DNA of 63,084 nucleotides, filler included, from Nemertoderma westbladi (GCA_032718475.1; 3 parts of 3 records of this genome joined end to end with filler, not necessarily neighbours in it), one strand, 5' to 3'; shown: positions 14,601 through 55,455, counted from the first letter of the whole stretch. The notes: generated by a model not told the origin, from the sequence alone. Program-made: numbers and translations.

Positions 14601-15155
14601 CCTGAACCTGATCAACACGCCAATAAGTGTACTGTATATGTTGGGCCCTGTGTAGAGTTGGCTGTTCAGGGATTCGCCTTGATACATAGCAGCAGCATCA
14701 TTTACTACTCGGATTTCCCTGCCCTTCAGGGCTTCTACCACGTAGTGGGTAGGGAGATAATATGTCCGTCTGCCCCCTTGTAGTTCATTCCGGGGTACCA
14801 TTTCCGCCAGTCCGTCCTCTAGATATCCTTTGATTACGTTATTATATTTCTCTTTTATCTCGGGTTGGTCATTAAACTGGCATAGGATACCTTTAAGCCG
14901 CCTAAGGGCCATGTTGGCATTATTCGCCATCGGTTTATCTGGGTCTTTCCATAACATGGGCGAACACCAATGTCCATCTTGAAACGTGGCCTGATCCAGG
15001 ATGTCGATACAATATTGATCTTCCTCGGACGGGTTCTCGTCCTTTTTGGCGAACTCTTGGGTCTCTAGATTAAAGTATTTTGTCATCTCCCGCTGAGTTT
15101 TCTCGGTCTCAAGAAACAAATCCTCGTCAAGGTCTGTAGCTGAACAATAACCCAC
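11683..15155 (-). pseudogene. pol: BEL/Pao pol (RT, RNase H/peptidase A17 region, integrase, DUF5641-like C-terminus), broken by stops and frameshifts
   Basis: RT FTCDIKSMFHQV and FYVDD; HTFSDAS; integrase H..H..CFPC, GVDCFGP, YSDNGTNF; C-terminal HWPVARV..DGLAR. Confidence 0.95.
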
Positions 15156-15205
15156 GGAGGTTGCATTCTCTTTAATCTGACATTTAGGAAGGTATGTATA
15201 GGTGT

Positions 15206-21709: not shown

Positions 21710-21809
21710 NNNNNNNNNNNNNNNNNNNNNNNNNNNNNNNNNNNNNNNNNNNNTTAATTAATTAANNNNNNNNNNNNNNNNNNNNNNNNNNNNNNNNNNN
21801 NNNNNNNNN
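21710..21809. other. Assembly gap with artificial TTAATTAATTAA linker
   Basis: N44-TTAATTAATTAA-N44, same as at 39252. Confidence 0.95.
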
Positions 21810-22038
21810 CCTCCGCCCCCTCCGCCCCCTCACCCCAGAACCACCCCCCCCATAATACTTCAAGCAGCTAACCAGTCGAGCTACACTAGCTATGCTATTG
21901 CTCGGCTGCAGTTGTAATATTAATATTAATATCATAAAAATATAAATGTATCTTTGTGCTATTACTATTGATGCATTATGAAAGAAATAAATAAATTGTT
22001 CTGTTAGTGACTTACAGTCGTTTGAAATCGTAATTTTC

Positions 22039-24021
22039 GCCCATGTGAAGTTTCCCAGGATTCCACTTTCCCAGAGAAAAAAAAACACATAGGAACGGAA
22101 TTTGGCCCATTCACTATCACTAGGCAACTTTCGTATTTTCGACCATCTTCCCAAACAGTCTGGGAAACTTCACATGGGGGGTATTTTGGTATTCAGGTGC
22201 TGCGCGAAGTTCTCTTTTTTGAGGGGGGTGGTTTGTTGATCAGTCGGTCGGACGGTGAGTGATGAAGTGGGCGGGTGGGTTTGTGGGTGGGAAAGTGGGA
22301 AAATTGGAATGTGGGTGGATGGGAATGTGGGAAGATGGATGGGAATATGGGAATGTGGGGAGGTGGATGGGAATGTGGGAAGATGGGAAGGTTCATGGGA
22401 TTGTAGGAAGATGGGAAGGTTGATGGGGATGTGGGAAGATGTGAATAACAATGTTTATTGTTTGGATAGAAAAGCCCGCTGCTGTAACCTGCTCCTTTCC
22501 CATCAATTGGTAAGTGACAACAACGTTTATTGTTTTTTTTAGAAAAGCCGCCTCTGTCACCTACTCCTTTCCTCAAATTGGTAGATAACAACGTTTATTG
22601 TTTTGGTTAGAAAAGCCCTCCTCTGTAACCTGCTCCTTTCCCTCAATAGGTAACAATATCGATAATTGTTTTGGTTAGAAAAGCCCGCCTCTGTAACCTG
22701 CTCCTTTCCCTCAATTGGTAACAATATCGTTTATTGTTTTGATTAGAACAACCCACCTCTGTAACCTGCTCCTTTCCCACAATTGGTAACAATATCGTTT
22801 ATTGTTTTGGTTAGTAAAGCCCGCCTCTGTAACCTGATCCTTTCCCTCAATTGGTAACAATATCGTTTATTGTTTTGGTTAGAACAGCCCACCTCTGTAA
22901 CCTGCTCCTTTCCCACAATTGGTAACAATATCGTTTATTGTTGTGGTTAGAAATGCCCGCCTCTGTAACCTGCTCCTTTCCCTCAATTGGTAACAATATC
23001 GTTTATTGTTTTGGTTAGAAAAGCCCGCCTCTGTAACCTGCTCCTTTCCCTCAATTGGTAACAATATCGTTTATTGTTTTGGTTAGAACAGCCCACCTCT
23101 GTAACCTGCTCCTTTCCCACAATTGGTAACAATATCGTTTATTGTTTTGGTTAGTAAAGCCCGCCTCTGTAACCTGCTCCTTTCCCTCAATTGGTAACAA
23201 TATCGTTTATTGTTGTGGTTAGAACAGCCCACCTCTGTAACCTGCTCCTTTCCCACAATTGGTAACAATATCGTTTATTGTTTTGGTTAGTAAAGCCCGC
23301 CTCTGTAACCTGCTCCTTTCCCTCAATTGGTAACAATATCGTTTATTGTTTTGGTTAGAACAGCCCACCTCTGTAACCTGCTCCTTTCCCACAATTGGTA
23401 ACAATATCGTTTATTGTTGTGGTTAGAAATGCCCGCCTCTGTAACCTGCTCCTTTCCCTCAATTGGTAACAATATCGTTTATTGTTTTGGTTAGAAAAGC
23501 CCGCCTCTGTAACCTGCTCCTTTCCCTCAATTGGTAACAATATCGTTTATTGTTTTGGTTAGAACAGCCCACCTCTGTAACCTGCTCCTTTCCCACAATT
23601 GGTAACAATATCGTTTATTGTTGTGGTTAGAAATGCCCGCTTCTGTAACCTGCTCCTTTCCCTCAATTGGTAACAATATCGTTTATTGTTTTGGTTAGAA
23701 AAGCCCGCCTCTGTAACCTGCTCCTTTCCCTCCATTGGTAGGTAAAAATAACTTCATTCCCATCTTTCCACATTCCCATCTTCCTACATTTCCACCACCT
23801 TCCAACATTCCCATCCATCTTCCCACATTCCTACAGTATCTTCCTATATTCCCACCCATCTTCCCACATTCCCATCTTCCTACATTCCCATACCCACCGA
23901 CCAACCAACCGACCGACTGACCGACCAACCGAGCCAAACACCCACCTACCCACCCCTTTAAACAAATGTTGACCCATTTTATTTCGACTTTCCGTGGCTC
24001 TCTGGGAAAGTTCACATGGGC
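22039..24021. mobile_element. Foldback/MITE-like element with inverted arms around a 68-bp satellite
   Basis: GCCCATGTGAAGTTTCCCAG (about 22039) versus CTGGGAAAGTTCACATGGGC (about 24002); GGGAATGTGGGAAGAT tract (22240-22440) mirrored at 23750-23960. Confidence 0.65.
22445..23738. repeat. 68-bp tandem satellite, about 19 copies, with alternating variants
   Basis: CTCTGTAACCTGCTCCTTTCCC(T/A)CAATTGGTAACAATATCG recurs every 68 bp. Confidence 0.97.
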
Positions 24022-24819
24022 CGTAATTTTTTTATAAACCTTGTTTAATCTTACTATCATTGAACCACGAATTTTTCCCCAGGTGTGCGAGTTCTCAAAC
24101 AAGAGGTCTTACAATTTATTTCTATAAATTTGAAAGTGAAAAATTTATATTAGGCAAATTAGGTTCTGGAATGAGAAGTATATTGTAATTCAAAAGTTGT
24201 TAAAATTAAAAACTACTTTGTTATCTGCTGTTCCGATGTGAAGTTACAAAATTTGGAATCTACAAGAACTCTCAGTTCTCTAAGATGCAATATTGAGTTA
24301 AAATAGTTAAACTAAGTGCTGAGTTTCAATGGCAACCAAATTAATCGTCATTTAAAACAACTATTAGGAAACAGGGTTTAAGAAGATACGAATAAATGGT
24401 ATTTCAATTAATACTGTATTTCAGCGAGTTATTTATACCTGTTTCAATTCATTCTTATAACAACGGAATCGCAATTACGCTGGAATTAGCTTTCTCATGT
24501 GTTTTGTGTTTTTATTTGACTGTTATTATTATAGTTTTGTTGGTATACTCTATTATTATATATACACGTAGAGCCAAAACAACACAAACCAAATTTTGAA
24601 TGGCAGAATCATTTAGGCTCGTTAAGCCAAGGAATGCCTGTTCACCACCATGGGTGATCTTCCACAGTAAACCCTTCCACTCTGTTTCCCAAGTTGCCTT
24701 GGTTCCCATTTATCGACCACTGAAGGATGAAAGCCGGGGTTGGGCTAGGCTGCAGCATTTAAAGCACTGTGCCCAAACAGTGCTGCCCCATCGAACCCGG
24801 GCTCCCTAATCACCAAGGC

Positions 24820-28984: not shown

Positions 28985-29655
28985 TTCAATGCAGCAGGGG
29001 GCTGCGGGGGAGCCATCAACGTTGCAGGGGGCCGTGAGGGAGCCATCAACGCTGCAGGGGGCAGCGGGGGAACCATTAACGCTGCAGGGGGCCGTGGGGG
29101 GCCCATCAACGCTGTAGGGGGCAGCAGGGGAGCCGTCAACGCTGCAGGGGGCAGCGGGGGAGCCGTCAACACCGCAGGGGGCCGTGAGGGAGCCATCAAC
29201 GCTGCAGGGGGCAGCATGGGAGCCATCAACGCTGCAGGGGGCCGTGGGGGAGCCATCAACGCTGCAGGGGGCCGTAGGGGACCCATCAACGCTGGAAGTG
29301 GCAGCGGGGGAGCCATCAACGCTGCAGGGGGCCGTGGGGGAGCCATCACCGCTGCAGGGGGCAGCGGGGGAGCCGTCAATGCTGCAGGGGGCAGCAGGGG
29401 AGCCTTCAGCGCTGTAGGGGGCAGCGGAGGAGCCGTCAACGCTGCAGGGGGCCCCGTGGGAGCTATTAACGCTGCAGGGGGCAGCGGGGAAGCCGTCAAC
29501 GCTGCAGGGGGCAGCGGGGGAGCCGTCAATGCTGCAGGGTGCAGCGGGGGAGCCGTCAATACCGCAGGGGGCCGCTTGAGAGCCATCAATGCTGCAGGGG
29601 GCCGCGTGAGAGCCATCAACGCTGCAGAGGGCAGCGGGGGAGCCATCAACGCTGT
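28985..29655. repeat. 30-bp GC-rich minisatellite, about 22 copies
   Basis: GGGAGCCATCAACGCTGCAGGGGGCAGCGG repeated. Confidence 0.97.
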
Positions 29656-29687: not shown

Positions 29688-30877
29688 CGGTGAGTGAGGG
29701 AGAATTGAACCCCAAATTTATGATTGCTATCATTATGTGAGAGTTTGAGAATTTCAACTCTTAAACTTTTTTAATTAAACCAATTATTCGTATTTTCGAA
29801 AATTTTCAATGGTGGGGGGGGGGGGGTGGGGGGGGAGACTTAACACCTAGGGTGGGAGACTTGAACCCCCCCCCCACCTCGCATTCTTGTAAATTCGTTC
29901 AAAAATGCATAAGAAGTGTAATAATTACATGTTCAACATGCCTATTCTCTAGTCGAGCAGAAAAATTTCAAAAAATGCGATTGTTAAATTGTTAAATTAT
30001 TATCCAAAATATTATACAAATTTAGGTGGCCGTTCACATGGTTCTCCCAACAAGAACTGAATAAATAATAGTTCATTAAACCCGCATTAAAATTTAACGC
30101 GGGGAGGTACTTTTTATTAATGAATATCTTGTATAATTTTCAATCCAGGCACATATTAAATGTCTTCCTGTAATTCTATTGATGTGTGCCGCTTTCTGAC
30201 AAAGTGGCATCTTGTTTAATCTGTCAATCACACAGTTGGCGGGCTACTAACTACATTGCAAAGAGGGAAGCGGGAAGGACGAGTTGGTTGGGTTGGCTTG
30301 GCTGGGTTTATCAAGGCCTCTCCCCCCCTCTCTCTCTCTCTGGCCACTCCATTGTATTCACATTCCATTGATAGCTTGGTCTGTGTAAGTACCAATCAAC
30401 TAGTTGGAGTGCTCTGGTGTATGGTTCTCTACGTGGGTGTATCTCTAGGTAGACCGTAGACGTCAGCATTGAAGGGTTCAATTCTCCCTCACACTTGGGC
30501 GTCATGTCTCCCCACATGGGCTTTTTTTTTATATTAATTGATATAATTTCAAAACGGCTGAACCAAAACTAGGAAAACAAAATGGCAGGATAGTGCAATA
30601 ATTAGTCAACACATATTGTGAATTACAATAACATACAGTAAAATAAGGAAGCGAATTTTCATTCGTTGTAAAGGGCAAAAATTTACTTTTGAACCCAGAA
30701 AACGTTTATTGACAATAAAACAACAAATAACCAAAAGGTAATAAAACATTGTTGCGCGGGTGTAGCCAACATGTATTTTACACATTTTTGTGTGGTATTG
30801 TTAAATAATTTACAATAGTTTTTGAGTTAATAAAAAAAATCAAGTCTCCCCTAAAGTCAAGTCTCCCTCTCTCACCG
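29688..30877. mobile_element. Tc1/pogo-like non-autonomous element (MITE)
   Basis: TIRs CGGTGAGTGAGGGAGAATTGA and TCAAGTCTCCCTCTCTCACCG; TA on the left flank; subterminal GGGAGACTT repeats. Confidence 0.6.
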
Positions 30878-31641
30878 CTACTGCTACTGTACAGAGTGAA
30901 GATTGTGCTGTTTTGTGAGCTAGCTGTGCAGTACTGCAGTAAGCTAAAATTACAGAATTAGTTTAAAAAATACTCTTTTAACTAATTTCAGAATTTTACA
31001 CAAAATTAGTAGATTAGATTAGATATTATGATTATGAATTATTATATTATGATTAGATTAGACATAGGATTAGATATATATACCATATAGAGCATAGAGT
31101 CACAGTCACCAGATCAACAATTTTTTAAAAAAGGATCTTACAGTCTTAACTGCTTAACCCTGTAATCAGTTAACCCAAAACACCAGGCTCTCAATCTTGT
31201 TCAATCATGTCTTGAAAGACCTGCAGCAGCAATCGGACAGTCAGACAGTCTGACAGTTGCAATTTCATAATTTGTAATCTGTCAGTCTGTAGGCCTAAAT
31301 CATAAATTGTTTGTTTTGTAGTGCAGTAGTGTAGGCCTTCTGTTCAGCTATTCTGCTATCCGATATTAGGCCTATCAGATTATTGTACCTTTAGGCTTTA
31401 GCCAACAGTCAGACAACCTAGGCTATCCTTTCAACTCTCAGTCACTGTCAGACTGTCAGTGTACCATACTGCAGTACTGGCAGAGTGGTGTAACTGACTG
31501 ACTGATTCCTGATTTGCCTATCAGCCAGTCACTGAGTCAGCTGATCAGATTATATTGAGTATTTATTGCTGTATTGTGAATCTCGATCTAATAACAACCA
31601 ACACAGCAACAATAACAAGGCCAAAACCTGAAGAAAGTACA

Positions 31642-31830
31642 ATGTTGCCCCCACGAGGTAATAAAATGATGGGGTATCTGAATTACAGGATGCGAGTTAC
31701 CCTTCAAGACAGCCGAACCTTCATCGGTTCATTTATGGCATTCGACAAACATATGAATATAATTCTCGGTGATTGCGAGGAGTTTCGGAGGATTAAACCA
31801 AAAGGACAAGAGGAGCGGCAAGAAAAAAGG
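31642..31830 (+). CDS. SNRPB: Small nuclear ribonucleoprotein SmB/B', coding exon 1 (Sm1 motif)
   Basis: [40 protein letters not shown]...EKR; phase-0 donor AGG|GTATGT at 31830/31831. Confidence 0.95.
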
Positions 31831-32599
31831 GTATGTCAGTCTCAGTATGTTGTTCTGGTTAATTACCGGTACAGTTTTATGTTCAAAGTTACATAGGCAG
31901 TCGATAGGTACAAACGAGCAAACTGGCAAAGCAAAATACAACTCACTTTCAACTTTAGTAACTTACCAGCTTACCCTGTTACCGGTATCGCTTACTTGTA
32001 CCGGTATTTGTATTTCCTGATTTCTGGTTCTGGGTGGATATTGGCTACGATATCACGAATGAATGCGAGACTAATCATTCTTCTATCTACTACTGTACTA
32101 CAGTACTGTACTACAGTACACTGTACTACCTGGTAGCTGACTAGGGCTCTTTCACACACACTACAGCACAGGCTGACAGGCGCCACTTTTTATATGGAAA
32201 ACATAGGCCTACAGCGTTATTTTACTTGGCTGACTTGGCCCTTGGCGTACTTAGACTTGGCTTGGTTTTTGGGGTGTTTGTACAGTCAGTTGTAGGTACT
32301 GTCTGGGATATTGGTTTGTTTTTTAGGTTAGGGTTTGTTGGTCATGCACAAACCATAATTAAAGCAGTAATTTAACCCTAACCCGAAGTCATGAGGCTCT
32401 AATATATGAAATTTTGTACAATTTCTGACTTTTCTAACCAAAACAATAAACAATATCTCAATAACATAGGGTATTTCATACTTATAGTCTTATTTTTGCA
32501 ATACGAAAATACCAGAGGTACGAATATAATATGGATATGAACTATAACTGACTTTTTGTATTATAATAATATTGGTTATTTATATAGCGTATAATAATA

Positions 32600-32815
32600 A
32601 TAATATTGGTTATTTATATAGCGCTTTTCTACGCTCAGCATACTGAAAGCGCTTTTATTATTATTACCCCAGCAAAGCCAGGTACCGCTGGGTTGGCGTA
32701 GGCACTAATGTCTAAAGTGTCTTGCCTAGGCTAGGGACACAACAGTGCGAAATTTATTGTAAGCCAAACACTATTGTGTAAGCAGTTCAGGCGCCATATC
32801 CACTCGGACACTGCG
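32600..32815 (-). mobile_element. Degenerate tRNA-derived SINE (CORE-like centre, L2-like tail) in the SmB intron
   Basis: Minus strand shows A-box-like TGTCCGAGTGG, GTTGTGTCC...GGCAAGACACTT and an AAGCGCTATATAAA tail. Confidence 0.45.
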
Positions 32816-33149
32816 ACATTAGCTCGAAGGGCCAATGGTACCACCGGTTGGCCTAATGCGCCAATATATTATGGGCCTAATATATGGTAATGTGCCTAAT
32901 AGCTGAATAGATTAAAGCCTCATGACTTAGTGTTAGGGTTGAATTACTGCTTTAATTAGGGTTTATGGGTTATTAAAATTAGGGTTAACCGGGGTAGTGG
33001 ATATGAGTCTACTATTAAACTAATTAGAATTAAAGTTATTAAATTAATAATAATTAAATAAATAAATTACTCAGAGCTATAACATTTAGTGACTACAGAG
33101 CTTCTTCACTTCTGCACTTCCATTATACAAATCCCTCAATATTTTACCG

Positions 33150-33785
33150 CTAGAATCAATATATAAATTAGAAGTAAATAAACTCATGCTTGATATTTAT
33201 AAAATAAAACACTCTTTGATGCTCCTGATATATATAAATTGATTCTCCCTCACTTCTGATCAGCATAGCTTCTTCACCAGATCAGCTGTATCCGGTTGTC
33301 TCTTTGTCCCGTCTGTTCGCCTAATGTTAGCCAAGCAATCACTTCGATATAAAGGTCCAGTTCTCTGGAACAACATGGACATTTGTACAAGGACTGTACA
33401 AACAAAAATATGTTTGCAGTCAAAGTAAAGCAGCATCTGTACGATAGTGGTTAAATTTGAGCATTAACGTAACGCAATACCGATATGCCCTACATTCCGG
33501 CGTGATACGCGATATAGAACGGTATTGCTAAAAGCAACTAATATACAATAGGTTACTCTAAAAACTAACTACCATAGTTAACAAAATGTTGGCACGATGT
33601 ACCGCAATCCCCCCCCCCCCACCCACCATCCAAGGCTACAATCATTACTAGCCCAGCTATCGTGTTGCTGCCTTTCCCATACCGCAACCACATATATTTA
33701 TTACATATTCAATTGTGCAGTTATGTATTATATTTTGTATATGGTAAATGGGATAAATAAACAAAAAATTGAATTGAATTGGAAA
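33150..33785 (+). mobile_element. Old LINE (CR1/L2 group) 3' remnant in the SmB intron
   Basis: Fragmentary peptide HSFFTRS...KQSLRYKGPVLWNN; AATAAA plus (AATTG)n tail near 33750-33785. Confidence 0.4.
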
Positions 33786-34029
33786 TTGTTTGGGCCACCA
33801 CTATTGTAACCTGCAGGGCCCACGCAAACTGTGAAAAAGTGGCGCCTCCAGCAGTCTAGAGGCGCTATCCCCTTCTACTACCGGTAGTCTTGTTTTGATG
33901 GTGTCTATGTCACGTTTGACACCACCCACTGTGACCGTTTACCTTGAAACACGGTCATTGTGATATGATTTCGAATCTAGGCCTATTCGTTATTTGATAA
34001 CTTTTGAGCCCGATAACTTTATAGAAGTA

Positions 34030-36383
34030 AAGTTGTTGTTCATTTCCCTCATTAGTTAATGTGTTTGTTTATTTCCCTCCTGACTCCTGAGATAATGTTG
34101 TTGTTTATTTCCCTCCTTAGGTAATGTTTTTTTTTATTTCCCTCCTTAGGTAATGGGTTTGTTTACTTCCCTCCTTAGATCATGTTTTTTCCCTCCTTAG
34201 ATAATGGGTTTTGTTTATTTCCTTCCTTAGATAATGTTGTTGTTTATTTCCCTCCTTAGGTAATGTGTTTTTTTATTTCCCTCCTTAGATAATGTTGTCG
34301 TTTATTTCCCTCTTTAGGTAATGTTTTTGTTTATTTCCCTCGACTTAGATAATGTTGTTGTTTATTTCCCTCCTTAGGTAATGGTTTTGTTTATTTCCCT
34401 CCTTTGGTAATGGGTTAGTTTATTTCCATGTTGTTGTTTATTTCCCTCCTTAGGTAATGGGTTTGTTTATTTCCCTCCTTAGATAATGTTGTTGTTTATT
34501 TCCCTCATTAGGTAATGGTTTTGTTTATTTCCCTCGACTTAGATAATGTTGTTGTTTATTTCCCTCTTTAGGTAATGGTTTTGTTTATTTCCCTCGACTT
34601 AGATAATGTTGTTGTTTATTTCCCTCCTTAGGTAATGTTTTTGTTTATTTCCCTCGACTTCGATAATGTTGTTTGTTTCCCTCCTTAGATAATGTTGTTG
34701 TTTATTTCCCTCCTTAGGTAATGGGTTTGCTTATTTCCCTCATTAGATAATGTTGTTGTTTATTTCCCTCCTTAGGTAATGGGTTTGTTTATTTCCCTCC
34801 TTAGATAATGGTTTTGTTTATTTCCCTCCTTAGGTAATGGATTTGTTTATTTCCCTCCTTAGGTAATGGGTTAGTTTATTACCATGTTGTTGTTTATTTC
34901 CCTCCTTAGGTTATGGTTTTGTTTATTTCCCTCCTTAGGTAATGGATTTGTTTATTTCCCTCCTTAGGTAATGGGTTAGTTTATTTCCATGTTGTTGTTT
35001 ATTTCCCTCCTTAGGTAATGGGTTTGTTTATTTCCCTCCTTAGATAATGTTGTTGTTTATTTCCCTCCTTAGGTAATGGGTTTGTTTATTTCCCTCCTTA
35101 GGTAATGGATTTGTTTATTTCCCTCCTTAGGTATTGGGTTAGTTTATTTCCATGTTGTTGTTTATTTCCCTCCTTAGGTAATGGGTTTGTTTATTTCCCT
35201 CCTTAGATAATGGTTTTGTTTATTTCCCTCCTTAGGTAATGGATTTGTTTATTTCCCTCCTTAGGTAATGGGTTAGTTTATTTCCATGTTGTTGTTTATT
35301 TCCCTCCTTAGGTAATGGTTTTGTTTATTTCCCTCCTTAGGTAATGGATTTGTTTATTTCCCTCCTTAGGTAATGGGTTAGTTTATTTCCATGTTGTTGT
35401 TTATTTCCCTCCTTAGGTAATGGGTTTGTTTATTTCCCTCCTTAGATAATGTTGTTGTTTATTTCCCTCCTTAGGTAATGGGTTTGTTTATTTGCCTCCT
35501 TAGATAATGTTGTTGTTTATTTCCCTCCTTAGGTAATGGGTTTGTTTATTTCCCTCCTTAGGTAATGGTTTTGTTTATTTCCCTCCTTAGGTAATGGATT
35601 TGTTTATTTCCCTCCTTAGGTAATGGGTTAGTTTATTTCCATGTTGTTGTTTATTTCCCTCCTTAGGTGATGGGTTTGTTTATTTCCCTCCTTAGATAAT
35701 GTTGTTGTTTATTTCCCTCATTAGGTAATGGTTTTGATTATTTCCCTCGACTTAGATAATGTTGTTGTTTATTTCCCTCCTTAGATAATGTCGTTGTTTA
35801 TTTCCCTCCTTAGGTAATGTGTTTGTTTATTTCCCTCCTTAGGTAATGGATTTGTTTACTTCCCTCGACTTAGATAATGTTGTTGTTTATTTCCCTCCTT
35901 AGGTAATGGTTTTGTTTATTTCCCTCGACTTAGATAATGTTGTTGTTTATTTCCCTCCTTAGATAATGTTGTTGTTTATTTCCCTCCTTAAGTAATGTGT
36001 TTGTTTATTTCCCTCTTTAGGTAATGGATTTGTTTACTTCCCTCGACTTAGATAATGTTGTTGCTTATTTCCCTCCTTAGGTAATGGTTTTATTTATTTC
36101 CCTCGACTTAGATAATGTTGTTGTTTATTTCCCTCCTTAGGTAATGGGTTTGTTTATTTCCCTCCTTATGTAATGGTTTTGTTTATTTCCCTCGACTTAG
36201 ATAATGTTGTTGTTTATTTCCTTCCTTAGATAATGTTGTTGTTTATTTCCCTCCTTAGATAATGTTGTTGTTTATTTCCCTCCTTAGGTAATGTTGTTGT
36301 TTATTTCCCTCCTTAGATAATGTTGTTTATTTCCCTCCTTAGATAATGTTGTTGTTTATTTCCCTCCTTAGGTAATGGGTTTG
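34030..36383 (+). repeat. 29-bp satellite, about 80 copies, whose unit is the SmB intron 3' splice site plus the first exon bases
   Basis: Unit TTGTTTATTTCCCTCCTTAG|G/ATAATG(GGT/TTG); the last copy is the functional acceptor at 36370-36371. Confidence 0.97.
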
Positions 36384-36635
36384 GTTTTACTACGAGGAGA
36401 GAACGTCGTTAGTTTAACGGTAGAAGGGCCGCCCCCACCGGAGCTGCAACAGAGTCGCCCATCTGTGCCGAGTGGACCGGGGGGTGGGAGGGGGGCTGGT
36501 AGGGGGATGCCGCCCCCTAGGATGGGCGGGGGCCCTCCAGGACTCCAGGGGCCCGGGCGGGGTATGGGCGGCCCCCCTGTCGGTATGATGATGCCTGGGG
36601 GATATGGCGACAGGGGGCCGCCCCCCAGATGGTAG
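36372..36635 (+). CDS. SNRPB: SmB/B' coding exon 2 (Sm2 motif plus Gly/Pro/Arg tail)
   Basis: ttag|GTA ATG GGT restores [25 protein letters not shown]; GRG/PPP tail; stop TAG ending at 36635; 150 aa in total. Confidence 0.95.
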
Positions 36636-37424
36636 ATGGGCGGACGTCTTTCTGTACTTGAGGTCGTCGCATAGTAGACTGTTTTGGCTGCAGTTTTTGT
36701 CGTTCGCGAATCGCATAAACTTTCGATTACAGGAAATCCTCACTTATAAACTGCGACTTGCCTGTTGTATGACCCGCAGTGGAGTCGCAAATAGACTGGC
36801 AGTGAGTGACGTCACAACGTCCTTAATGTGACTTTGTGGACTGTTTGTTTACCTAAACACAAACCGACTATCTTACTTTTTCATTTGTTGAGGTGATTAT
36901 CTGATATCTCGGCTCACTAGCTAATTTTAAACTTTAGGATTATCGATAATTACCATTGCAATCTTATTTTTCTGTTTTTACTTATATAATATAATGTACA
37001 TTTCCTCGTGTTTTGGCGTTATTAAATTCGCCTGTGATTAATATTTGCTATAAATAGACTACAGGCAATAATAATTATTAAAGCAATAAAATTTAAGCCT
37101 CACCTCCACCAACCTCCTATCTATTTCCTGGATCCTTTGAGACCCAGGCGTTATTTTATGAAAATTCAGGTTCCGGCCGGAATACTCCGGCATTTGAAAT
37201 TCCGGTTCCGACCGGAACCAAAATATCGGTTCCCGTACATCCCTACTTTTGTATTTTTTAATACCGTGCAATTCAGTAAATACGTTTTGGAGAACAATAA
37301 GTCAATAACCGAATTCGAAATCAGATTTAATTCGTCAGCGTACTACTACTACTATTGCACATTGAGATGCTTACAGTACTCTATGCCACCACCATGCAAT
37401 CCACAATTGGCAAACCCAATGCAA

Positions 37425-38130
37425 CGCGTATTAAGAATGCTATGCCGACTTATCAACAAAATTGCACAGCCATAACTCCCTTATTTCCCACGACGTTCGC
37501 GAGATTATCTGCATCTTCAAGGCCAGTGTCCATTAAGAGGCGTCTCAAGTAAGTAATGATGATTGATGGGCTGTCCACCATGCCTTTTTTCTTCATGAGG
37601 CCACCGAAAGTACAAGAATGTGCTCAGACTGGTCCTCACGGCAAAAACAATGTCTGCAAAGCGGAGGCGGCTTTGTTCCAAGTGTCAAGCTTGGGGGAAC
37701 CAATTAGACACCTCCAATGTTATATACAATATGATATTTATTTATATGTAGTGTTTGTTTCGGTGCGGTTTGTTGTTTTTGCTGTTGTCCATTATGGTTT
37801 GTCTGATAAGTCGCATAGCGGCTGGGGGCGAAAGCCCCGGACATTCAAGATTTAATTAACTTAACTGTAATGTCTGGTTGGAGATGTGTGTATTTAGTAC
37901 TTCGCACAGTAAACCCTACGTAGCATTCTTGTGAATGTGCCATCCAGAGATTTGGTGTCCTCAGCATTTAGAGCCCAGCATGGACTCCCATAGAGGAGTA
38001 CTGGAACTACTGGTGCTCTAAATAATCGGACCTTAAGCTTCCGATGTATTCTGTGTGACTTCCAAATCCTGGAAAGCTCATTTAATGCTGCCCATGCCTT
38101 TTTCTTACGTAGTCGAAGGTCCTGACCAAG
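37425..38130 (-). mobile_element. RTE-clade LINE 3' fragment, more diverged, with a ~140-bp insertion
   Basis: Homologous to 24820-25340; interrupted at about 37727-37868. Confidence 0.78.
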
Positions 38131-39251
38131 GATGTTATTACGTTACCTTACGATATCTTTTCAGGAATACCGTAGCTCAATATTTTTCCGTAACGTAAAC
38201 CGTAACGTAATAGCTTTTTCAATACCGTAACGTAATATTACTGTATATTTTTACCGTAAACCGTAACGTAATAGCGTAATATTTGTTTTATCTACCAAGC
38301 AATCATTTTGGACAAAAAAGTAAATCTTTCGACAAAAAACTTTCACTTTCATGTTTAGGCTAACTAGGGCTACTGACTTATCCCTTTATTGCACCGAGCT
38401 GACGATTTTAATCAGACAATCAAGCCAATTAATTTGCAGACGATTTCTGTCTGTTCGGCTGTCTGTCTATCTGTCGTCTGTTTGTCTGTCTGTCTATATG
38501 TATGTAGGCATGCTTGATGGTTTATCGGTCTGTCTATCTGTGAGTCTGTCAGTCTGTCTGTCTGTCTAATCTAATCTTTAATTACCTAATTAAATAATTA
38601 GCCTAATCACTTATTAAATAATTAAACTAATTAAATCATTAATTAGCTCTAAATAACTCTGTCTTTCTATAACAATCAATAATTACTTAGAAATGACAAA
38701 CAATAAGGCTTTTACAAAAGGAAAACCTAATTGCACAGTTCAGTTCCATTTTCCACTACTTTCCTTTACTGCACACTGTTGCTTATAAGCAACACGGCTT
38801 ATTTTGTGCCTTAGAATTACAAATGAACCTGTATAATTTGCAAAAATAGATGTAATAGGTGCAGGATATACAAGAAAATACGTTAGTATTTTTTGGCACC
38901 ATAAAATTATCGCAGGAATAAAAAAAGCCGACATAAAAACACCTATAAACTATCTTTCTCCTATTTTCCTATCAACATTTTTGAATGTTAACTTACAACA
39001 TAATTTAAACCTCCCACCCAAGTCTCTTCGTTTTTATTGGATAATTTAATTATCCTGCTATAAGCTACAAAGTGCAGTAATGGTTGGTTGATGGTTTTTC
39101 TATGAGATCAGACCGATAATAGAACTGTTGCTTAAAAGCATAGATAGATTTATTTATATATTATGCAAACAATAGAAACCAATACATTAACTCAGTAAAA
39201 TTATTAATGTATAGTAAGTATTGTCCAACATAACATAAAGGATAACCCCTA

Positions 39252-39351
39252 NNNNNNNNNNNNNNNNNNNNNNNNNNNNNNNNNNNNNNNNNNNNTTAAT
39301 TAATTAANNNNNNNNNNNNNNNNNNNNNNNNNNNNNNNNNNNNNNNNNNNN
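39252..39351. other. Assembly gap with artificial TTAATTAATTAA linker
   Basis: N44-TTAATTAATTAA-N44. Confidence 0.95.
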
Positions 39352-40995
39352 CCTGTGGGAATTCGGGGTCTCTGCATGACAGATGAATGTAGGTTCTGTC
39401 TACAAACGTCCTTAAAAATGGCGAATCCAGAGCTGTCCAACTTCTCAGCAGCTGAGTCTCTTAAGCTGAGCTTGGTCAAAGCGCGGTCCTTGAATTGACT
39501 ATCAACGTTGCGGAACGGAGTCAGAAAGCGCCTAAAGCATTCGAATCGAATGAATTTATTGTGTTCATCTAGCTTGGCGAGTTTGGTTCCAAGCAGTAAG
39601 GGATGAGCGCGTATAGTGCGACTTCACACATCGGCTAGCCAACCGGCAAGTGTGGTGTTCTCAAAGATAGTATATATAGCTAATGAGGGATGGAGTGGAA
39701 CACTCATAAAGCTATAGACGACGCCAGGTGCGGTTAATGGTCCGTCAAAATATAATCGAGAATAATGATCTCCATATATTTGTTGGTAGCTGACAGGGTT
39801 TCTGACTTTGAAATTCCATCCGTATTCTTGGAAGGCAAGATGTCCGATAGAGGTTCGTTGTACTTTATTGATTCCGCTTGATGTATTAGCATACATAGTT
39901 TGGAAGAAACCTCGGCCTTCTGCCCAGGGAGCAATCAGCTGGGTGTCTTACGAAAGGATATGGGATATTCTCCATGTTTCTGAAGTCATTTAGGAGATCT
40001 CCATAAATAGCTGAGCCGATTTTAAGGATTCTCTCGTCAAACAGCATCTCGAGCACTGGCTGGGGTAGCATAGATCCATCTATACCCATGGCCGGTTTGC
40101 GCTCGGTATCGGTAACATAACGCTGCGCAAGTTCGAATTGTCCATGTCGGAGTTTCTTTTGGATCACTGTGAGAGTCTCAAAAGAGTAATCGATCACGTC
40201 GGAACACGCTCGAGTAAACACATGGGCAGAACCAGTTAGTCCACATATGTGTATCATTCGCGTAGTTCCCAGTTCTCCAACCGGAACGCTACCTTCATTA
40301 TCATAAGTGACAACTCCATACATTTCGATAACGTTAAGAGTTTCGTTCCACTCTTTAGTGGCGTTTTCTATGGTCATACCCACTGGATGCCATAAGGTGC
40401 GTAAGTTCGCTTGCGTTAGGTAGATCGCTATACTTCAGATAATGTGTATTATAAGTCTCTGCATCTCCGTATCGCTGTATTCTCTCTTCCTCGAATAATA
40501 CGTTGAGATTCCAATGGACTAATCGAGTTTTAATAAATCCATCAAAATTATATGGAGGCATTATGTCCTTTTCTATTCTTGAAACATTATAAGGTTTTCT
40601 AAATGGGTTTACTTTAACCAATTGATCTAGATGTTTCTGTAGTTGTTCGAGTTCGACAAGATCCAGGGGGTTTATCAATGGTAGAAACCTTAAACTGTGC
40701 GTAGGATCTTCCGGTTTCACCATATAATATTGGGTTAAATTGACATAATAAGGGTGGTCTTTGATCCCATAAAATGAGTTCGGTAAAGGTCTAGCGCGTA
40801 GGTTGACCTCGTGTACCATACGACGGACAAGATCCGCTCGATTGTCCGGATGTTCAACGAGTATATCGTTGACACGAGCGGCCTCGATTGGCGGACGTTG
40901 TAACATAGGAGCATCAGCGATAAGATCTCTAGATCTTAAATTGATATCAACCGGTTGGGGTTGTACCGTGGCGAAGAGTTTGTCTCCGAAATGGG
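39352..40995 (-). pseudogene. Family-2 ORF3, distal part: DEDDy 3'-5' exonuclease domain
   Basis: VVTYDNEG (ExoI), LPQPVLEMLFDERILKIGSAIYGDL (ExoII), TSIGHLA...NFK...YQQIYG; aligns with family-1 ORF3. Confidence 0.82.
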
Positions 40996-41571
40996 TGTGA
41001 CGGGATCCGTGGACCCCGATTTATCCGTGTGGGTTTTCCTATCTACGCGTCCCCGCCGTGTGTGTGAAAAGGTTCTTTAAGGGTTCCAAAGTTCCTGATT
41101 GATATGAAGGTATATGGTAATATGATATAAGCACAATTAATCAGGGTTAAAGTAGTTACCGGTAAATAGGTATTACATATAGTGGCGGTAGCGGACGGTG
41201 ATAGAAGTCACCGTTCCACCCTACTGAACTGACTGAGTAAACTGAGCAAGTAACACAGTTACCGGTAATATATATTGCACGGTTGGCCGCATTATCCTAC
41301 TCAGCCGATGCCTCCCCCCCATTGGCTAATAACCCTGTTGTCGCCCTTTGCCTCTCCTGGAGGGTTTCCCTTTGCCCTGTTACTCTCTCTCTCTTTCAGG
41401 GGTGTAACCCCTGACCCATATTGTGTGTGTGTTCTCTGGGGCCTATTGTCCCCGTTTACTGGGGTGACACGAGGTTGATATTGGTAATCAACCTCGTGCT
41501 CCCAATATTGCTTAGAGGCGCTCTTTCCCACTTTATGGGGGTTTGGTGAGGCGGAATTGAATCCGCTCACA
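40996..41571 (-). repeat. 3' LTR of the nested element
   Basis: TGTGA...TCACA termini; adjacent PPT. Confidence 0.95.
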
Positions 41572-41799: not shown

Positions 41800-42900
41800 C
41801 TAACTAACTCCGCTCTAACTCCCCTCTTACTCTCTCCCCACTCTTACACTCTCCCCACACCTGAATCGCACTCTAACTTCTCTCCATACTCCTCTCTACT
41901 CTCTACCACTCCCAAAGGCCCTAATCTCTAATGCTACCCCTGTGCTATCATACTATCTACCCACTACTTACTTGCTAACTATCTAACTCTCTACTAACTC
42001 TCCGACTCTAACTAGCTCTACTAAGTCTAACTAACTCCTACTAACTCTCTACTTCTACTAACTCCCTCTAACTCTTACCAATTCTTCAAACTATGTGGCG
42101 CTTAGGGTGGCCACGACCCCTCTACTACTAACTCTAACTAAAACCCTCTAAGTCTACCAACTCTCTAGCCCTTTAACTAGAACTCTCTAGCTCTACCCAC
42201 TCTTCTAACTACGTGGCACTTGCGGTGCCCACAACCACTCTACTATCTGGCACCCTATGTGCCCGTCTCTACTACTCTACTACCTGGCACCCTATGTGCC
42301 CGTCTCTACTACTCTACTACCTGGCACCCTATGTGCCCTCTCTACTACTCTACTACCTGGCACCCTATGTGCCCTCTCTACTACTCTACTACCTCTCTAA
42401 CTCTCTAACTCTACTACCTGGCACCCTATTTGCCCATCTCTACTACTCTACTACCTGGCACCCTATGTGCCCTCTCTACTACTCTACTACCTGGCACCCT
42501 ATGTGCCCTCTCTACTACTCTACTACCTCTCTAACTCTACTACCTGGCACCCTATGTGCCCGTCTCTACTACTCTACTCTATCTTCATCTTACCCCCTTT
42601 ACGTCTACTCGCCTGCACGTGACGCTCTGAATGCCGGCAGAGTGGGTACGTTAATTATGTGAACTACTACTAACTCTTACTAACTCTACTAACTCTCTAC
42701 TAACTCAACTAACTCTACTACTAACTCTTACTAACTCTACTAACTCTCTACTAACTCAACTAACTCTACTACTAACTCTTGTGCCCGGCACCTCTTGTGC
42801 CCGGCACCCACCCTAATTAACATACCCTGCTCTTACATCAAACACGTCATCACGCCCGTGCCCCATTTAGTTCAACGCATCCCCTACTAACTCTAACTAC
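41800..42900. repeat. Low-complexity CTACT/CTAACT tract with ~33-bp and ~39-bp tandem repeats inside the nested element
   Basis: CTACTCTACTACCTGGCACCCTATGTGCCC repeated. Confidence 0.9.
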
Positions 42901-45900
42901 GTGGCGCTTGCGGTGCCTACAACCACTGGCATTAAAGGCCTCGACAACCCCCGTCCGTCCTTCGGTATACACGGCGTCTGCCCATGTAATGCCCCCTCGC
43001 ACTCTGTCGGTCCCGCGTGCGTATGCAACACGCCTCCTGCTTTCCTGAGTCCTTTGTTATGTCCACCCACGGACCTCTCTGCCCCTGGTCTAATCCTCTC
43101 ACATCCTCTCCCTTTCCTTCTTGTCTTCTTACTCGGCCTCCCCTTTATCGGTATGCCCCTCAACCGGACCGGCATCTCTTCCGGACACTCCTCCGGTTTG
43201 TCCTCCGGACATCTTGCCGTCCGTTCCTCTCTATCTCCATGCCGATACTTGCTGGGATACCCATTCTCTCCCGCCCACTCTCTAACTGTTACTTCCTCGG
43301 GTAGTACTCTTCTCTTCTTTCTTGCCACTGTCGTGCTTGTAGCTGCTGTTTCTCTACACTCTCCGGGTCTGTGTCCTTCTACCACACATCGATGACATAG
43401 TCCGTTTGCATCTGCGTAGGCTATACGATCTTGTTTGGGCAGCGCTTGCCAGTGCTTACAACTCATGGTCTTATGGGTTCCGTCCCGATGTAATTGACAT
43501 TCGAATCCTGTATTATAGCGTTTCCTGTATAATCCCTCACGTATCGCGCCTAGGTTCATATGTACCGATTTAATGTGTTGGTCTTCTGGACTCGGCCTAC
43601 TGGGTATATTGGGATCGTGTTTAATTGTGATGTTATTTTCTTTCTGTCCCTGCCACGGTGTGGCCCTACCAGCTAGCTGTGGACTAGCAGTCCCCTGTAT
43701 GGCCGCGTGTGGTAGCGACTGTCCGCACGACCTGTTCTCGTCCAAGGGGTTCGATGTTCTTGCTCCTATTGGGGTATATTGTTGATATTGTGATGGGGGA
43801 ATGTCACCCTGTCCCCCCCCCCCCCCCCCACTGGTATGTTTGGTACTGGGGTTGATGTTAATATATTGGGGCCCATACATCTATCTGCAATAACTCTCTC
43901 CTCCCCTGGATATATGTTATGTCCCTGTGTATTATAGTCATGCTGCCGTACCGATATAGGCCTACCCACTTCTTGCCTACCTACCGGTATCTACTCCGTG
44001 GCTTCCGGGTTTAATCCCGTCGTTCGCGCTACCCTATCGCCTACTCTACCTCTCCCAGCATGGCCTATAATAGTATGTGCAGTAAGGCCTACAGTATGTC
44101 CTGCAGTCTGCATGTGCCCTTTTGAACCGAAGTTTAATCTTCGCGAATCTCGAGTCTCCCCGCAACTACCGCACTCTCGATCGGCAGCTATATCCCGTCA
44201 GGAAGCTTCTCTTCGATCCCCTCTCCTGTTCTTGACTTTGTATCGGTACGTCCTGTACCCCTCTCTTGGCGTGCGGTGCTTTTCTCCGGGGCGACGGCAA
44301 TCTCCCGAAGTTCGACCCCACTGACTCCCTAACTCCATCTCTACTGTCGACGGCTCGCTATCCATTCTCGCACTCCTATCGTTCGTGGCGACATTTCTTC
44401 TACTATCTTCTCTTTTCTTTTTAGTGCAGTATTCCCGCTCGTGAGATCTCTCGTCGACCTCCTGGTTAAACTCCCCTGCTTTTCTTTCCTCTTCTGATCG
44501 GGCTCGACACTTTGTCCGCCCTCTCGCGACGTCAACCTGCCCCTCTTTGCTCGATCGCACGCCGCTGGGGATACTCGCAATCCCCCTATTACTCTCCGTC
44601 GCCGGGTGTTGCGGTTTACCTAGCTCGGCCCGCGCATTATCCGCCGACGCCTGTGGGACACTCTCTGCCCCCCCCCCTTCTCGCTACTAATCTCTCGCGG
44701 TGGGGTGTCTGTAGCCCCCCCCCCCCCACCCGCCGCTTCTAACTTCACTACCTCTTACTACACTTCTGCGTCCCTCTTATCGGACATTCTCCACCACCCT
44801 TCTCTCGCCACTAATCTTCCGTGGTGGGGCGCCCGTAGCCCCCCCCCCCCCCCCACTCGCCACATCTAACTCCACTATCTCTCACTTCACTTCTACACCC
44901 CTCTCTAGTCGACGCACTGTCTCTACTACGGCTGGTTCTATTCACCCCCGCCTCTCTCTCTATTACTGCGTGGCCTACCAGGCCCACCTCAGGTTGGCTC
45001 AACCCCGCTGCTCCCTGCCTACTAACTACGTGGCCTACCAGGCCGCCGTCTGCCGGGTTATGTACGTCCGACACGTTCATATTAATAGCACCATTCCCAA
45101 TATTATTTGTTAAGTCAATTAAATTATTAGAATTTGAAACGGGATTATTATTTAAATTATTTAAATTAGGATTATTATTATTTTCAAAATTTGAATTATT
45201 ATTCGAATTATTTGAATTATTCTGAATATTTGAATTAATATTATTATTTGAATTTAAGTTTAAAATACCGGGTAAAATATTTCCTGTAATAAAGGGATTA
45301 GGGTTATCTACTACGGTACTATTAATATTAACTACTTCTAGCGTACTATTATTACCCCCCCCCCCCCCGCCCGTACGGCTACACCAGTTCTGGTTCTCTC
45401 GTCCGGTGCCTGTAAGTGGGGTCTCACTCTCTGATAGTTCCAACCGCGCCAGTTCTAGTCGGCGCCGCTCCAGTTTGGCTTGATATTGTGTAAGCCTCTC
45501 TAGCTGGGCACGCAAATCATCCCGCATGCGCTTATCCTCTATATCTCTCTCTCGTGTACTCTGCTCGGCCAACTCGGTATCTCTCGCAACCATCTCAAAC
45601 CGCCTCGCCGACTCGCTCATCTCCCGCTCTCTACACTCCTTGGCTCTCTTTCTACACTCCTCGGCGCTCTCTCTATACTCCCTCGCTAACTCTCCTGACC
45701 TCTCTGAAAACGCGGTTTCCTCTCACAATTGTCTCTCTAACTCATTCTGCTCATTTGCCACCATTTTTAATTCATACGTCAGACTTATCTCCCGCACCCC
45801 TCTTTCTTTTTCGGAGGATGTAGCAGAGTTATCGGTTGCGACGGACTCCCGTCGCCCCTCCGTCCCACCAACTTTCCCCCGCCTCCCGGAACTTCCTCCG

Positions 45901-46659
45901 ACCGACAAGACCGAATCCTCGGGGCTAACCTCGGATTCGCCCTCCTCAGGTCTCTTCCAACCCACTAATTTTGCTCCCCGGGAATCGATTAAGTATGGCC
46001 CTATGTACACTACACTAGGTTGCATACCCTTATACTCCCATAGTTCAAGCAGTTCGCTGGCAACCCCTCTCGCTCTCTCGCTGGCTAGTTCTTGCTGCCC
46101 AAAACGCACTAGGTAAGCAAAATATCTGTTCGACTCACCTAGCCGCTTTTCTAACTTCACCTCATCTAGTTATTCTCCCTCCTTAGCTTCCCTCAACTGT
46201 TCCCTCGTGGCGTTGTAAGCCCGTCGGAGCCAGTCGCTAACTCCGACGTCCTCGTCGCCGACATCCCCTCTTTCTCTCTGTGTCCGGCGTCGTACCGGCG
46301 GCTCCACTGTCGCCGTTCCGGTGGGCCGTCCGTCGCCCTCGGCCTGTGGCTGGCCGGCGACATCGGCACGTCGACCGCCGCTGTGTGTCGACTCGTCTCT
46401 TTCCCCTCTCGACTCGTCTTTCCCTCCTCTCGACTCATCCACTGGTTGTAGACGGCCCCCCTCATCTCTGGTCGCCGGGTCGCCCATTGTCTATGGGTCC
46501 GGCGTCGTGGGTTTATACCGTCTCGTCGCGGCCTCGCGGATCGTTAGATCGCCGTCCGGGGTCCGCGGCGGTGTCGTCTTTCCTTCTTGGTTCATCTTTA
46601 TCTCTGGTGGCTGGCAGCCACAGTCTGTCAGGGCAGTTGGTTGGATCTAGTTCTATCAC

Positions 46660-47235
46660 TGTGACGGGATCCGTGGACCCCGATTTATCCGTGTGGGTTT
46701 TCCTATCTACACGTCCCCACCGTGTGTGTGAAAAGGTTCTTTAAGGGTTCCAAAGTTCCTGTTTGATATGAAGGTATATGGTAATATGATATAAGCACAA
46801 TTAATCAGGGTTAAAGTAGTTACCGGTAAATAGGTATTACATATAGTGGCGGTAGCGGACGGTGATAGAAGTCACCGTTCCACCCTACTGAACTGACTGA
46901 GTAAACTGAGCAAGTAACACAGTTACCGATAATATATATTGCACGGTTGGCCGCATTATCCTACTCAGCCGATGCCTCCCCCCCATTGGCTAATAACCCT
47001 GTTGTCGCCCTTTGCCTCTCCTGGAGGGTTTCCCTTTGCCCTGTTACTCTCTCTCTCTTTCAAGGGTGTAACCCCTGACCCCTATTGTGTGTGTGTTCTC
47101 TGGGGCCTATTGTCCCCGTTTACTGGGGTGACACGAGGTTGATATTGGTAATCAACCTCGTGCTCCCAATATTGCTTAGAGGCGCTCTTTCCCACTTTAT
47201 GGGGGTTTGGTGAGGCGGAATTGAATCCGCTCACA
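46660..47235 (-). repeat. 5' LTR of the nested element
   Basis: Direct repeat of 40996-41571. Confidence 0.95.
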
Positions 47236-48716
47236 ATGGGGAACCATCGAAGGATGAATGATGATTTTGGAATAGAGATCAGTCATAAGGATTTGAGCTT
47301 CTGGCTGGGCTAAAGCTGCTTCTTCTCTCTCATCCATTTCGATATGTTTCTCCTCGAGCTGATTTTCCTCCACTTGTCGTTGGAAGCGTTCGTCCAAAAA
47401 CTCTTGTAGAGAGTAGGTTCGTCCAAGTTCGATATCTTCTTCGAGATTCTGGATTTCCCGATCGAACTGGGATAAAGCTAATTCTTTTACCGCTTGGACT
47501 TGTTGTTGCAATTTACGTTTGTCTAAACAATCGTAGGTTCCTTTTCCGATCTTTTGTCGAATAGCGTATAACGCGTTTCGTACAACGCTCTCCTCCACCT
47601 CGGTGACGGGTTGAACCAGGACGATTATACGGGTTGAACGGCGATATTAGAAGTCCGCATCCCAATCCGGCTAGGTAGGATGGGCGAATATCTAGGGAGT
47701 CCACAACCGGAGTGCCACCAACTAATTGTTCGGGTAACACTAGATCTTTGAACAATGAGTACAACTCTGGAGGATCCGTCATACTATCCCAGGATACTAT
47801 CTCATACTATCATAGGATCAAGAGTCTGAGGTCTCACCAGGGAATGAGGAGGTCTGTACGAGTATTCCGGAACTCTGATCATAGGTTTATTTAAGGATTG
47901 TTTGAGTCGAGCGAGCGTAGGTGATACGTCGAACAAGTTTCGCTCAAAACTCCCGTAAGTATAGCGAGTAAAACTGTATTTAGCGCAACGTCTCTGCGGA
48001 TGTTTATGTCTTTCCGTTTGTTGGTTGGGTGTAGGGCATTCATCGCAGTAATACCAAAGACGCACATCTTGTAGGGGGAATGCTGGTGATCTTTCTCCAG
48101 TTTTACAATATTCCTCTATCTGTTCGAAGCTATCCGGTACAACAGGTAGCGGTCGATCGGCGGTAAGATACATCATAGTAAAATAGAGTCGTTTGAGTTC
48201 TATCATAGGGTTATGATATATACCTTGAGGATATCGAGTTTCTAGATTTTGTTGACTGGCTACATTGAGATAAGTTTCTCTCAAGAATTCCAAATAATAT
48301 TCGTTGAAGTCACTGCGTTTATCCGATGCTTCAACATCTTCTCTTTCGAGTCGGTTTCGAATAGAATTTTCATGTTCGATTCTCAGTTTATCATTCCGAC
48401 TCTGCTGGGTATGATATTTAAATAGAATCATTTCCTGTTCTGTATCTACATCGTCCGTGTCGTGTAAATCGATAGCATGACCAGTAGTTAAGAAGTCCAT
48501 ATACGTACCATTACGATGCATATAGCGCGCAGTGAATTTTCTATAGTCCAATTCATGCGTGAGCTGTTCCTTTGACATTGGCAGTTCGATATAACGGCTA
48601 TCGTCTTCCGTAGTATGTTGACTACCGTCGCCGCTTATTAAACTATCAACAAACGCTTGCAATGGTAGGGTATATCGCTCCCTGATACCAAGATCATCTT
48701 CTATTAACTCAGTCAT
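47236..48716 (-). pseudogene. Family-2 ORF3, proximal part (unknown N-terminal domain with CDEC...H...C motif and coiled coil)
   Basis: ORFs 47802-48716, 47513-47782 and 47197-47598; removing the nested element joins ...PSMVPH to FGDKLF...MLQRP (40906) in frame. Confidence 0.72.
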
Positions 48717-55424: not shown

Positions 55425-55455
55425 ATCACTGAATTGGACAGTAGTTCGGGCTCAC

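Follow-up and report, generated by a model that had tools for sequence, protein, structure and literature searches.

Introduction

Several genes are known in which a splice site has been multiplied by tandem repetition, and the closest described systems to the locus reported here are the "mirage" minisatellites of amphioxus (lancelets), in which a gene carries its intron-exon boundary repeated head to tail, with the authentic copy at the end of the array. Mirages are reported in Adh3, in the globin genes BflGb6 and BflGb9, in troponin C and in PGBD5; the AG/GT signals are kept (here and below the slash marks the splice junction) in many, not all, of the units, array length is variable, units at the edges escape homogenisation, and splicing is reportedly undisturbed (PMC3087553, PMC3902484). 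In the accounts of mirages consulted, no explanation was found of why acceptor mirages stay silent.

Other systems share one or another part of this arrangement. In human CBS 844ins68 an intron-end/exon-start junction is duplicated together with its 3' splice site, and the distal of the two identical acceptors is chosen (PMC1802585, PMC2630376; the latter says 'donor'). Among repeated donors in human genes, the exon-adjacent copy alone is used of five to nine identical ones in F7 intron 7, only the authentic site is used in the lamin B2 and PDGF minisatellites, and the 6-16 gene and CBS intron 13 make partial use of two extra donor copies, whereas for duplicated globin splice sites one study found the proximal copy used and another the opposite (PMC1557585). 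Tandem AGGT sites, each a potential donor or acceptor, are known from UBC, from VCX3A and from introns with AGGT duplications: in human UBC they are really used, with stochastic splicing (PMC10809524), and a duplicated AGGT segment is removed at about 6-16% in human cells, in a paper that also puts the minimal intron at ~60 nt (PMC3265369). In the recursive sites of Drosophila and vertebrates an acceptor likewise abuts a GT (PMC8605326, PMC8184009, PMC10156609); the regenerated donors are suppressed by the exon junction complex in flies and mammals (PMC8184009, PMC8605326), and recursive lariats in short introns represent a minor route (PMC10156609). Lastly, human SNRPB, which belongs to the same gene family as the host gene studied here, is autoregulated through a stop-containing exon (PMC10087933).

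Here we describe a minisatellite of 75 units in the single intron of an SmB gene of Nemertoderma westbladi. The repeat class has already been described (PMC3087553, PMC3902484), and the SmB case is an added instance of it; a literature search that was thin on subscription journals turned up no published minisatellite in an intron of SmB.

Results

The gene lies on the plus strand of the window, that is, of the whole stretch of 63,084 nucleotides that was analysed, and all of its features given below are on that strand. Coding exon 1 (31642-31830; 189 nt or 63 codons, starting with the ATG at 31642 and ending in phase 0) matches the Pfam LSM domain with an E value of 2e-13 and corresponds to human SmB residues 5-65, and coding exon 2 (36372-36635; 87 codons plus stop, 67% GC, with 14 G-runs) corresponds to residues 66-149, so that the junction is colinear; in an alignment with 121 homologs no gap columns fall at it. 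The spliced frame is 150 amino acids long and contains no internal stop or frameshift. Its Sm domain is nearest to that of SmB, the similarity continues colinearly across the intron, and the tail is rich in Pro, Gly and Arg, all of which agrees with the earlier note, in which the host gene had been named as SmB from the sequence alone. A 33-row tree was built from the window protein and 32 of the 175 stored proteins, namely the named ones and some of the top unnamed matches; in it a 95/93 split sets the protein with the animals, with no finer placement. The intron (31831-36371; 4,541 nt, phase 0) opens with GTATGT (31831-31836), which has both +5G and +6T and is taken to be the authentic 5' splice site from the colinearity with homologs. 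Downstream of exon 2 there are candidate polyadenylation hexamers at 37021-37090 (ATTAAA at 37021 and 37077, AATAAA at 37085), the use of which is predicted. No Rfam match was found over 30000-38500. The part of the intron outside the array (31831-34026; 2,196 nt) contains a 61-nt inverted repeat pair (32347-32407 and 32907-32967; 89% complementary, 499 nt apart) that is probably a small non-autonomous element.

No close relative was found: the best identities were 72-81% for exon 1, among 120 of 201 matches listed, and about 60-64% for exon 2, over most of its length. At none of 54 distinct metagenome contexts was the coding sequence interrupted at the Arg/Val junction where the intron lies, although this is weak evidence on intron position, many of the contigs being short and transcript-like (the 54 contexts derive from 80 loci, of which 25 duplicates and one without the motif were dropped; three flagged rows break several codons earlier). 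In three gene-called fragments (P0128, P0135 and P0137) the similarity to SmB ends just before the GLVLLRG motif, hinting that in other animals an intron may be present within a few bases of this site. We also considered whether the whole intron was born by AGGT duplication and rejected this, as the intron end is by eye unlike the end of exon 1.

The array occupies 34027-36377 and accounts for 52% of the intron. TRF gave a period of 29 and 83.2 periods, whereas a unit-by-unit parse yielded 75 whole units (34056-36371), of 38 distinct sequences, plus a partial unit at the left flank; as the TRF figure is length divided by period, the 'about 80' tandem 3' splice sites of the earlier note proved to be an overcount of an array that is itself real. 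Most units are 29 nt long (53 of 75), the remainder being of 31 nt (10), 47 nt (7) or other lengths (5), and each joins the intron's last 17-24 nt to the first 5-12 nt of exon 2, the first 12 nt from 36372 onward being the exon-derived part of the repeat. The earlier description of a 29-bp satellite unit that includes the exon-2 start was thus borne out, as was its mixture of junction types: an AG is retained at 71 of the 75 upstream junctions, comprising 41 AG/GT, 29 AG/AT and 1 AG/TT, and was lost from four (before 34407, 34663, 35992 and 36170, with a new AG one base downstream at 35992). In contrast, the TAAT word that had been proposed as a branch point belongs to exon 2, since the GT and the TAAT of the unit are its Val-Met codons and not separate intronic signals. 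As exon 2 opens with a GTA (Val) codon, the AG/GT geometry is a mere copy of the exon start.

The array is far beyond chance, its two 12-mer cores being present in 52 and 64 copies within it and nowhere else in the window on either strand. The first 12 nt of exon 2 form the exact start of 11 of the 75 units, and the last 17 nt of the true acceptor are present at 47 of the 75 upstream junctions. The exact 24-nt pattern of the unit had no match in the metagenome contigs. The last unit (36343-36371) provides a candidate branch region, a U-rich tract and the AG at 36370-36371. At the other end, the left-flank 29-mer (34027-34055) ends in the first AG of the array and, at an offset of 29 nt, matches the first 12 nt of exon 2 at 8 positions; it is probably the original intron end, and the commonest unit type (22 units) has a TTGTTG in common with it. 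The seven 47-nt units lie within one block (34407-35666), each having arisen from a pair of units through a deletion in which one acceptor was lost, and the ten 31-nt units lie at 34318-34662 and 35725-36200.

The arrangement of the variants is that of ordinary minisatellite turnover. The 38 distinct units, 29 of them singletons, are arranged in blocks, with the 47-nt and 31-nt types in separate ones; there is a higher-order period of two units (lag-2 distance 3.36 compared with 3.90 in shuffled arrays, P 0.002); and the most diverged units are at the 5' edge (nearest-neighbour distance 1.69 compared with 0.31 in mid-array), the 3' edge being only slightly diverged. These observations also bear on whether the array might have been created in assembly, since tandem arrays are often mis-assembled and one lancelet mirage reportedly was (PMC3087553). 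An assembler repeats identical sequence and does not invent a history of 38 distinct units with block-wise two-unit structure and divergence at the 5' edge, nor does 31642-36635 contain any N; we therefore regard an artefact as extremely improbable, although the copy number is possibly inexact.

How the array arose may be sketched as follows. A chance similarity between intron positions -29 to -18 and exon positions +1 to +12 (8 of 12 bases) could have primed the first duplication, slippage or unequal crossing-over would likely have expanded this 29-base intron-end/exon-start piece to 75 copies, and turnover would then have run without selection preserving the splice signals. The array resembles the amphioxus mirages, and it has the four of their features that can be tested on sequence, namely size (its unit is within the 10-72 bp range of the Adh3 mirage), a boundary-spanning unit (intron end plus exon start, as in BflGb6), partial retention of signals and turnover with diverged edges. 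It differs in having 75 copies, as against 3-7 in the globin and PGBD5 mirages, and in being hosted by a core snRNP gene, whereas the reported amphioxus hosts have no link to splicing. Furthermore, length variation and normal splicing have been shown for the amphioxus mirages, whereas the SmB array is known from one haplotype sequence only.

The last acceptor is the only one that gives SmB. Since the in-frame triplet before the true acceptor is TAG, no upstream AG can read into exon 2, and none of 84 does so in frame; the frame read on from an upstream acceptor closes after 3-34 codons, and in 50 of 71 cases after 10. Both had been anticipated from the sequence, and RNA spliced upstream would have an early stop and a long 3' tail. 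For invertebrates, the exon junction complex is described as not involved in NMD (PMC8184009). None of the 1,403 possible unit-bounded pseudo-exons is in frame and stop-free, so that all are unproductive and no single discrete stop-containing cassette exon stands out among them; when any GT is allowed as donor, 42 of 8,078 combinations open into exon 2, all through non-consensus sites. In this the array departs from UBC and VCX3A, the repeats of which are described as coding and frame-keeping (228 nt in UBC): its unit is intronic and, at 29 nt, below the size of a minimal intron, and 30 of its 71 upstream acceptor copies are without a GT.

We infer from the sequence that the last copy is most likely the one used. 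Local sequence offers little by which it could be told apart from the others, because the true junction is matched without a difference by 32 of the 75 upstream ones over -20 to +3 and by 6 over -29 to +12, and only when +13 is included does the number fall to 0. As sequence up to +12 fails to distinguish the copies, whatever picks out the last one has to reside deeper in the exon or in the poly(A) site; past +12 the true acceptor is followed by purine-rich (0.60, compared with at most 0.35 upstream) and GC-rich sequence. Terminal exon definition, known from established splicing biology, is the simplest candidate for this role, and the acceptor would be chosen through it, by means of exonic sequence downstream of +12 together with the poly(A) site. 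On the whole, the array is probably a mirage minisatellite of which the last copy is used since only there does a real terminal exon follow. Against use of the last copy it counts that the decoys are transcribed before the true acceptor and are locally as good. Low-level or regulated use of upstream copies is possible on the sequence, and leakage to them would yield stop-containing RNA, probably as noise rather than regulation.

The precedents bear on this choice in part. In F7, the 6-16 gene, CBS intron 13, lamin B2 and PDGF the end unit also spans the exon-intron boundary and the exon-adjacent site is dominant, but there the donor is repeated, whereas here it is the acceptor. CBS 844ins68 does concern acceptors; it has two copies of 68 bp and, reportedly, intervening G-runs that promote the distal site, while the SmB array has 72 acceptors spaced by 29 nt with at most GGG between them.

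Predicted RNA folding provides a weak hint of a further aid to choice. Upstream AGs were predicted to be mostly paired with the U-rich stretch of the repeat (mean unpaired 0.10-0.22), and the true AG to be more open (0.35-0.75; rank 1-11 of 72 over 15 settings). However, structural masking as a designed mechanism was rejected: the array folds no better than its shuffles (z 0.14 and 0.74), and the AG is as open (0.61) when the exon is shuffled. For the pyrimidine tract of the true acceptor, most settings predicted an openness below the average (rank 31-71 of 72).

The AG/GT copies had been taken to imply that the gene must either skip its decoy acceptors or ratchet through them. An acceptor is indeed directly followed by GT in 41 of the 71 upstream copies, as at recursive sites, but several other properties of ratchet points are lacking. 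Canonical ratchet points are single, highly conserved and provided with strong donors in introns of ~50 kb on average in fly hosts, whereas here 41 weak-donor copies are mixed with dead ends in an intron of 4,541 nt; human data do include shorter host introns. The regenerated donor, GTAATG, has neither +5G nor +6T and, once exon 1 precedes it, agrees with the U1 complement at 5 of 11 positions compared with 6 of 11 for the authentic donor (a simple count against a consensus, not the output of a trained scorer). The step from donor to next acceptor is below 60 nt for 39 of the 41 copies, although longer jumps are possible. When routes were modelled simply, a ladder of nearest steps arrived at exon 2 for no more than 0-1 of 41 starting copies, and with uniform random choice of acceptors 8-12% of routes are productive given perfect re-splicing, compared with 1.4% without it, the AG/AT dead ends being what holds the figure so low; the first two copies both lack the GT, and five of the six copies nearest the exon are AG/AT. 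Nor do the splice signals appear to be protected: the last 17 nt show 14 distinct substitutions in the 74 units scored (one of the 75 could not be aligned), and the AG is affected by 4 of these as against 1.6 expected from its share (P 0.07), and within the array the +1 G is A in 30 units and seven units have lost an acceptor by deletion. As the excess of AG hits is not significant, it shows no protection, but not active loss either. A designed ratchet is not supported.

A removal of the intron in several steps, not selected for, would require less. Here the AG/GT copies would act as dual-specific sites that make part of the normal mRNA, either where an array GT at least three units upstream is joined to a later acceptor, such that the array is shortened in the RNA and a perfect acceptor remains beside exon 2, or where exon 1 joins an AG/GT copy and is then spliced again. 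The 41 AG/GT copies are consistent with this, and within the array TAG/GTAATG matches the U1 complement at six consecutive positions; in the literature, an AGGT segment is spliced out at 6-16% (PMC3265369), UBC is spliced stochastically (PMC10809524) and recursive lariats arise by a minor route in short introns (PMC10156609). Re-splicing of exon 1, however, faces the low yield of random routes and the weakness of the donor formed there, together with the suppression of regenerated donors by the exon junction complex (PMC8184009, PMC8605326), and we consider multi-step removal unlikely. Of the two alternatives posed at the outset, what stands is that the upstream copies, if the gene is expressed, must be skipped or removed; the ratchet lacks support, given its short steps, dead ends and weak donor.

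The same observations bear on the proposal that the array is a selected ratchet or feedback sensor, in which plentiful snRNPs would lead to more use of upstream copies and the copy number and GT/AT mix would set the level of SmB. All routes that leave upstream sequence behind are unproductive (0 of 84 single splices and 0 of 1,403 pseudo-exons), as a sensor would need, and the autoregulation of human SNRPB by unproductive splicing, which had been invoked as precedent, is in print (PMC10087933), its alternative products likewise carrying early stops, although the SNRPB element has a different anatomy, being a discrete cassette exon whose inclusion responds to SmB level. On the other hand, there is no sign of selection on the splice signals; ladders dead-end; and the 29-nt period together with the TAG before the acceptor yields unproductive products without need of design. 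Moreover, since the same kind of repeat is reported in Adh3, globins, troponin C and PGBD5, its presence in SmB needs no special explanation. We thus find the sensor put forward in the earlier note very unlikely. A related idea, that the array replaced a vertebrate-type poison exon and that its 71 matching or near-matching acceptors compete for U2 snRNP, so that wrong choices not spliced again end in an early stop and the snRNP level, with the copy number and GT/AT mix of the allele, determines SmB output, we hold to be just as improbable.

The gene could instead be a silent or spare copy of SmB surrounded by many transposons, in which the array grew as splicing ceased to matter. It is the only recognised host gene in the 63 kb, its protein has a long branch in the 33-row tree (0.67, compared with a median of 0.25), and two conserved positions are altered, Gln60 and Met65. 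These points have to be set against 150 codons without stop or frameshift, the retention of 33 of the 35 positions conserved in at least 90% of the 121 homologs and of tail motifs containing GRG, intact donor, acceptor and poly(A)-like signals, and the result of a search for other SmB copies, as the earlier note had advised, which found no second one within the window. On balance a spare copy appears quite unlikely.

Elsewhere in the window, we observed two Pao/BEL-type retroelements on the minus strand (11686-16921 and 50983-56331), with frames split by stops and Pfam matches to DUF1759, aspartyl protease, Peptidase_A17, integrase zinc-binding and DUF5641. Open frames of 220-380 codons without a Pfam match lie on the same strand at 8073-10098, 40358-41020, 42900-48731 and 61936-63084, and the frames near 9007-10362 and 39900-41020 resemble each other by eye. 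A 68-bp satellite of about 19 copies (22453-23740) has, by eye, a unit composed of a U-rich tract, an AG, about 39 nt and a GT; as long inverted arms flank it (about 22030-22450 and 23755-24030), it is likelier to be the core of a foldback-type element than a mirage, and 28 nt of its sequence are found again, in inverted orientation, at 32429-32456 within the SmB intron. Other satellites are at 3827-4632, 5700-6408 and 28986-29654, namely two arrays of an 8-bp unit, with about 100 and 89 copies, and one of a GC-rich 30-bp unit, with 22 copies, and the region is generally prone to tandem expansion. A pattern of 44 N, 12 bases and 44 N is present at 21710-21809 and 39252-39351, both outside the SmB gene.

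Of the two altered residues of the protein, Met65 is encoded within the repeated exon bases (36375-36377), its A being the +4 base of the unit. The residue is Leu in 120 of 121 aligned homologs (Leu67 in human) and at 54 of 54 distinct metagenome loci, and of the 21 positions that at least 98% of homologs share, this is the only one to have changed. All but one of the 75 units have an A at +4, as does the left flank. Turnover of the array may thus have rewritten the coding exon from Leu65 to Met through exchange of a flank-type unit with the exon, a reading of the sequence that we put forward tentatively and hold to be more doubtful than not. Two of the 21 positions fall within the repeated bases, so that the chance probability of the change being located there is about 0.1, and this was reckoned post hoc; the change may equally predate the array.

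Discussion

The SmB locus would matter much more if use of the upstream copies tracked the level of SmB, for the array would then be the first mirage with a regulatory job. The same would be so if the repeat proved to have altered a near-invariant residue of a core spliceosomal protein, as the position of Met65 may suggest. What the locus offers, with six decoys identical to the true acceptor from -29 to +12, is a large and clean natural test of 3' splice-site choice.
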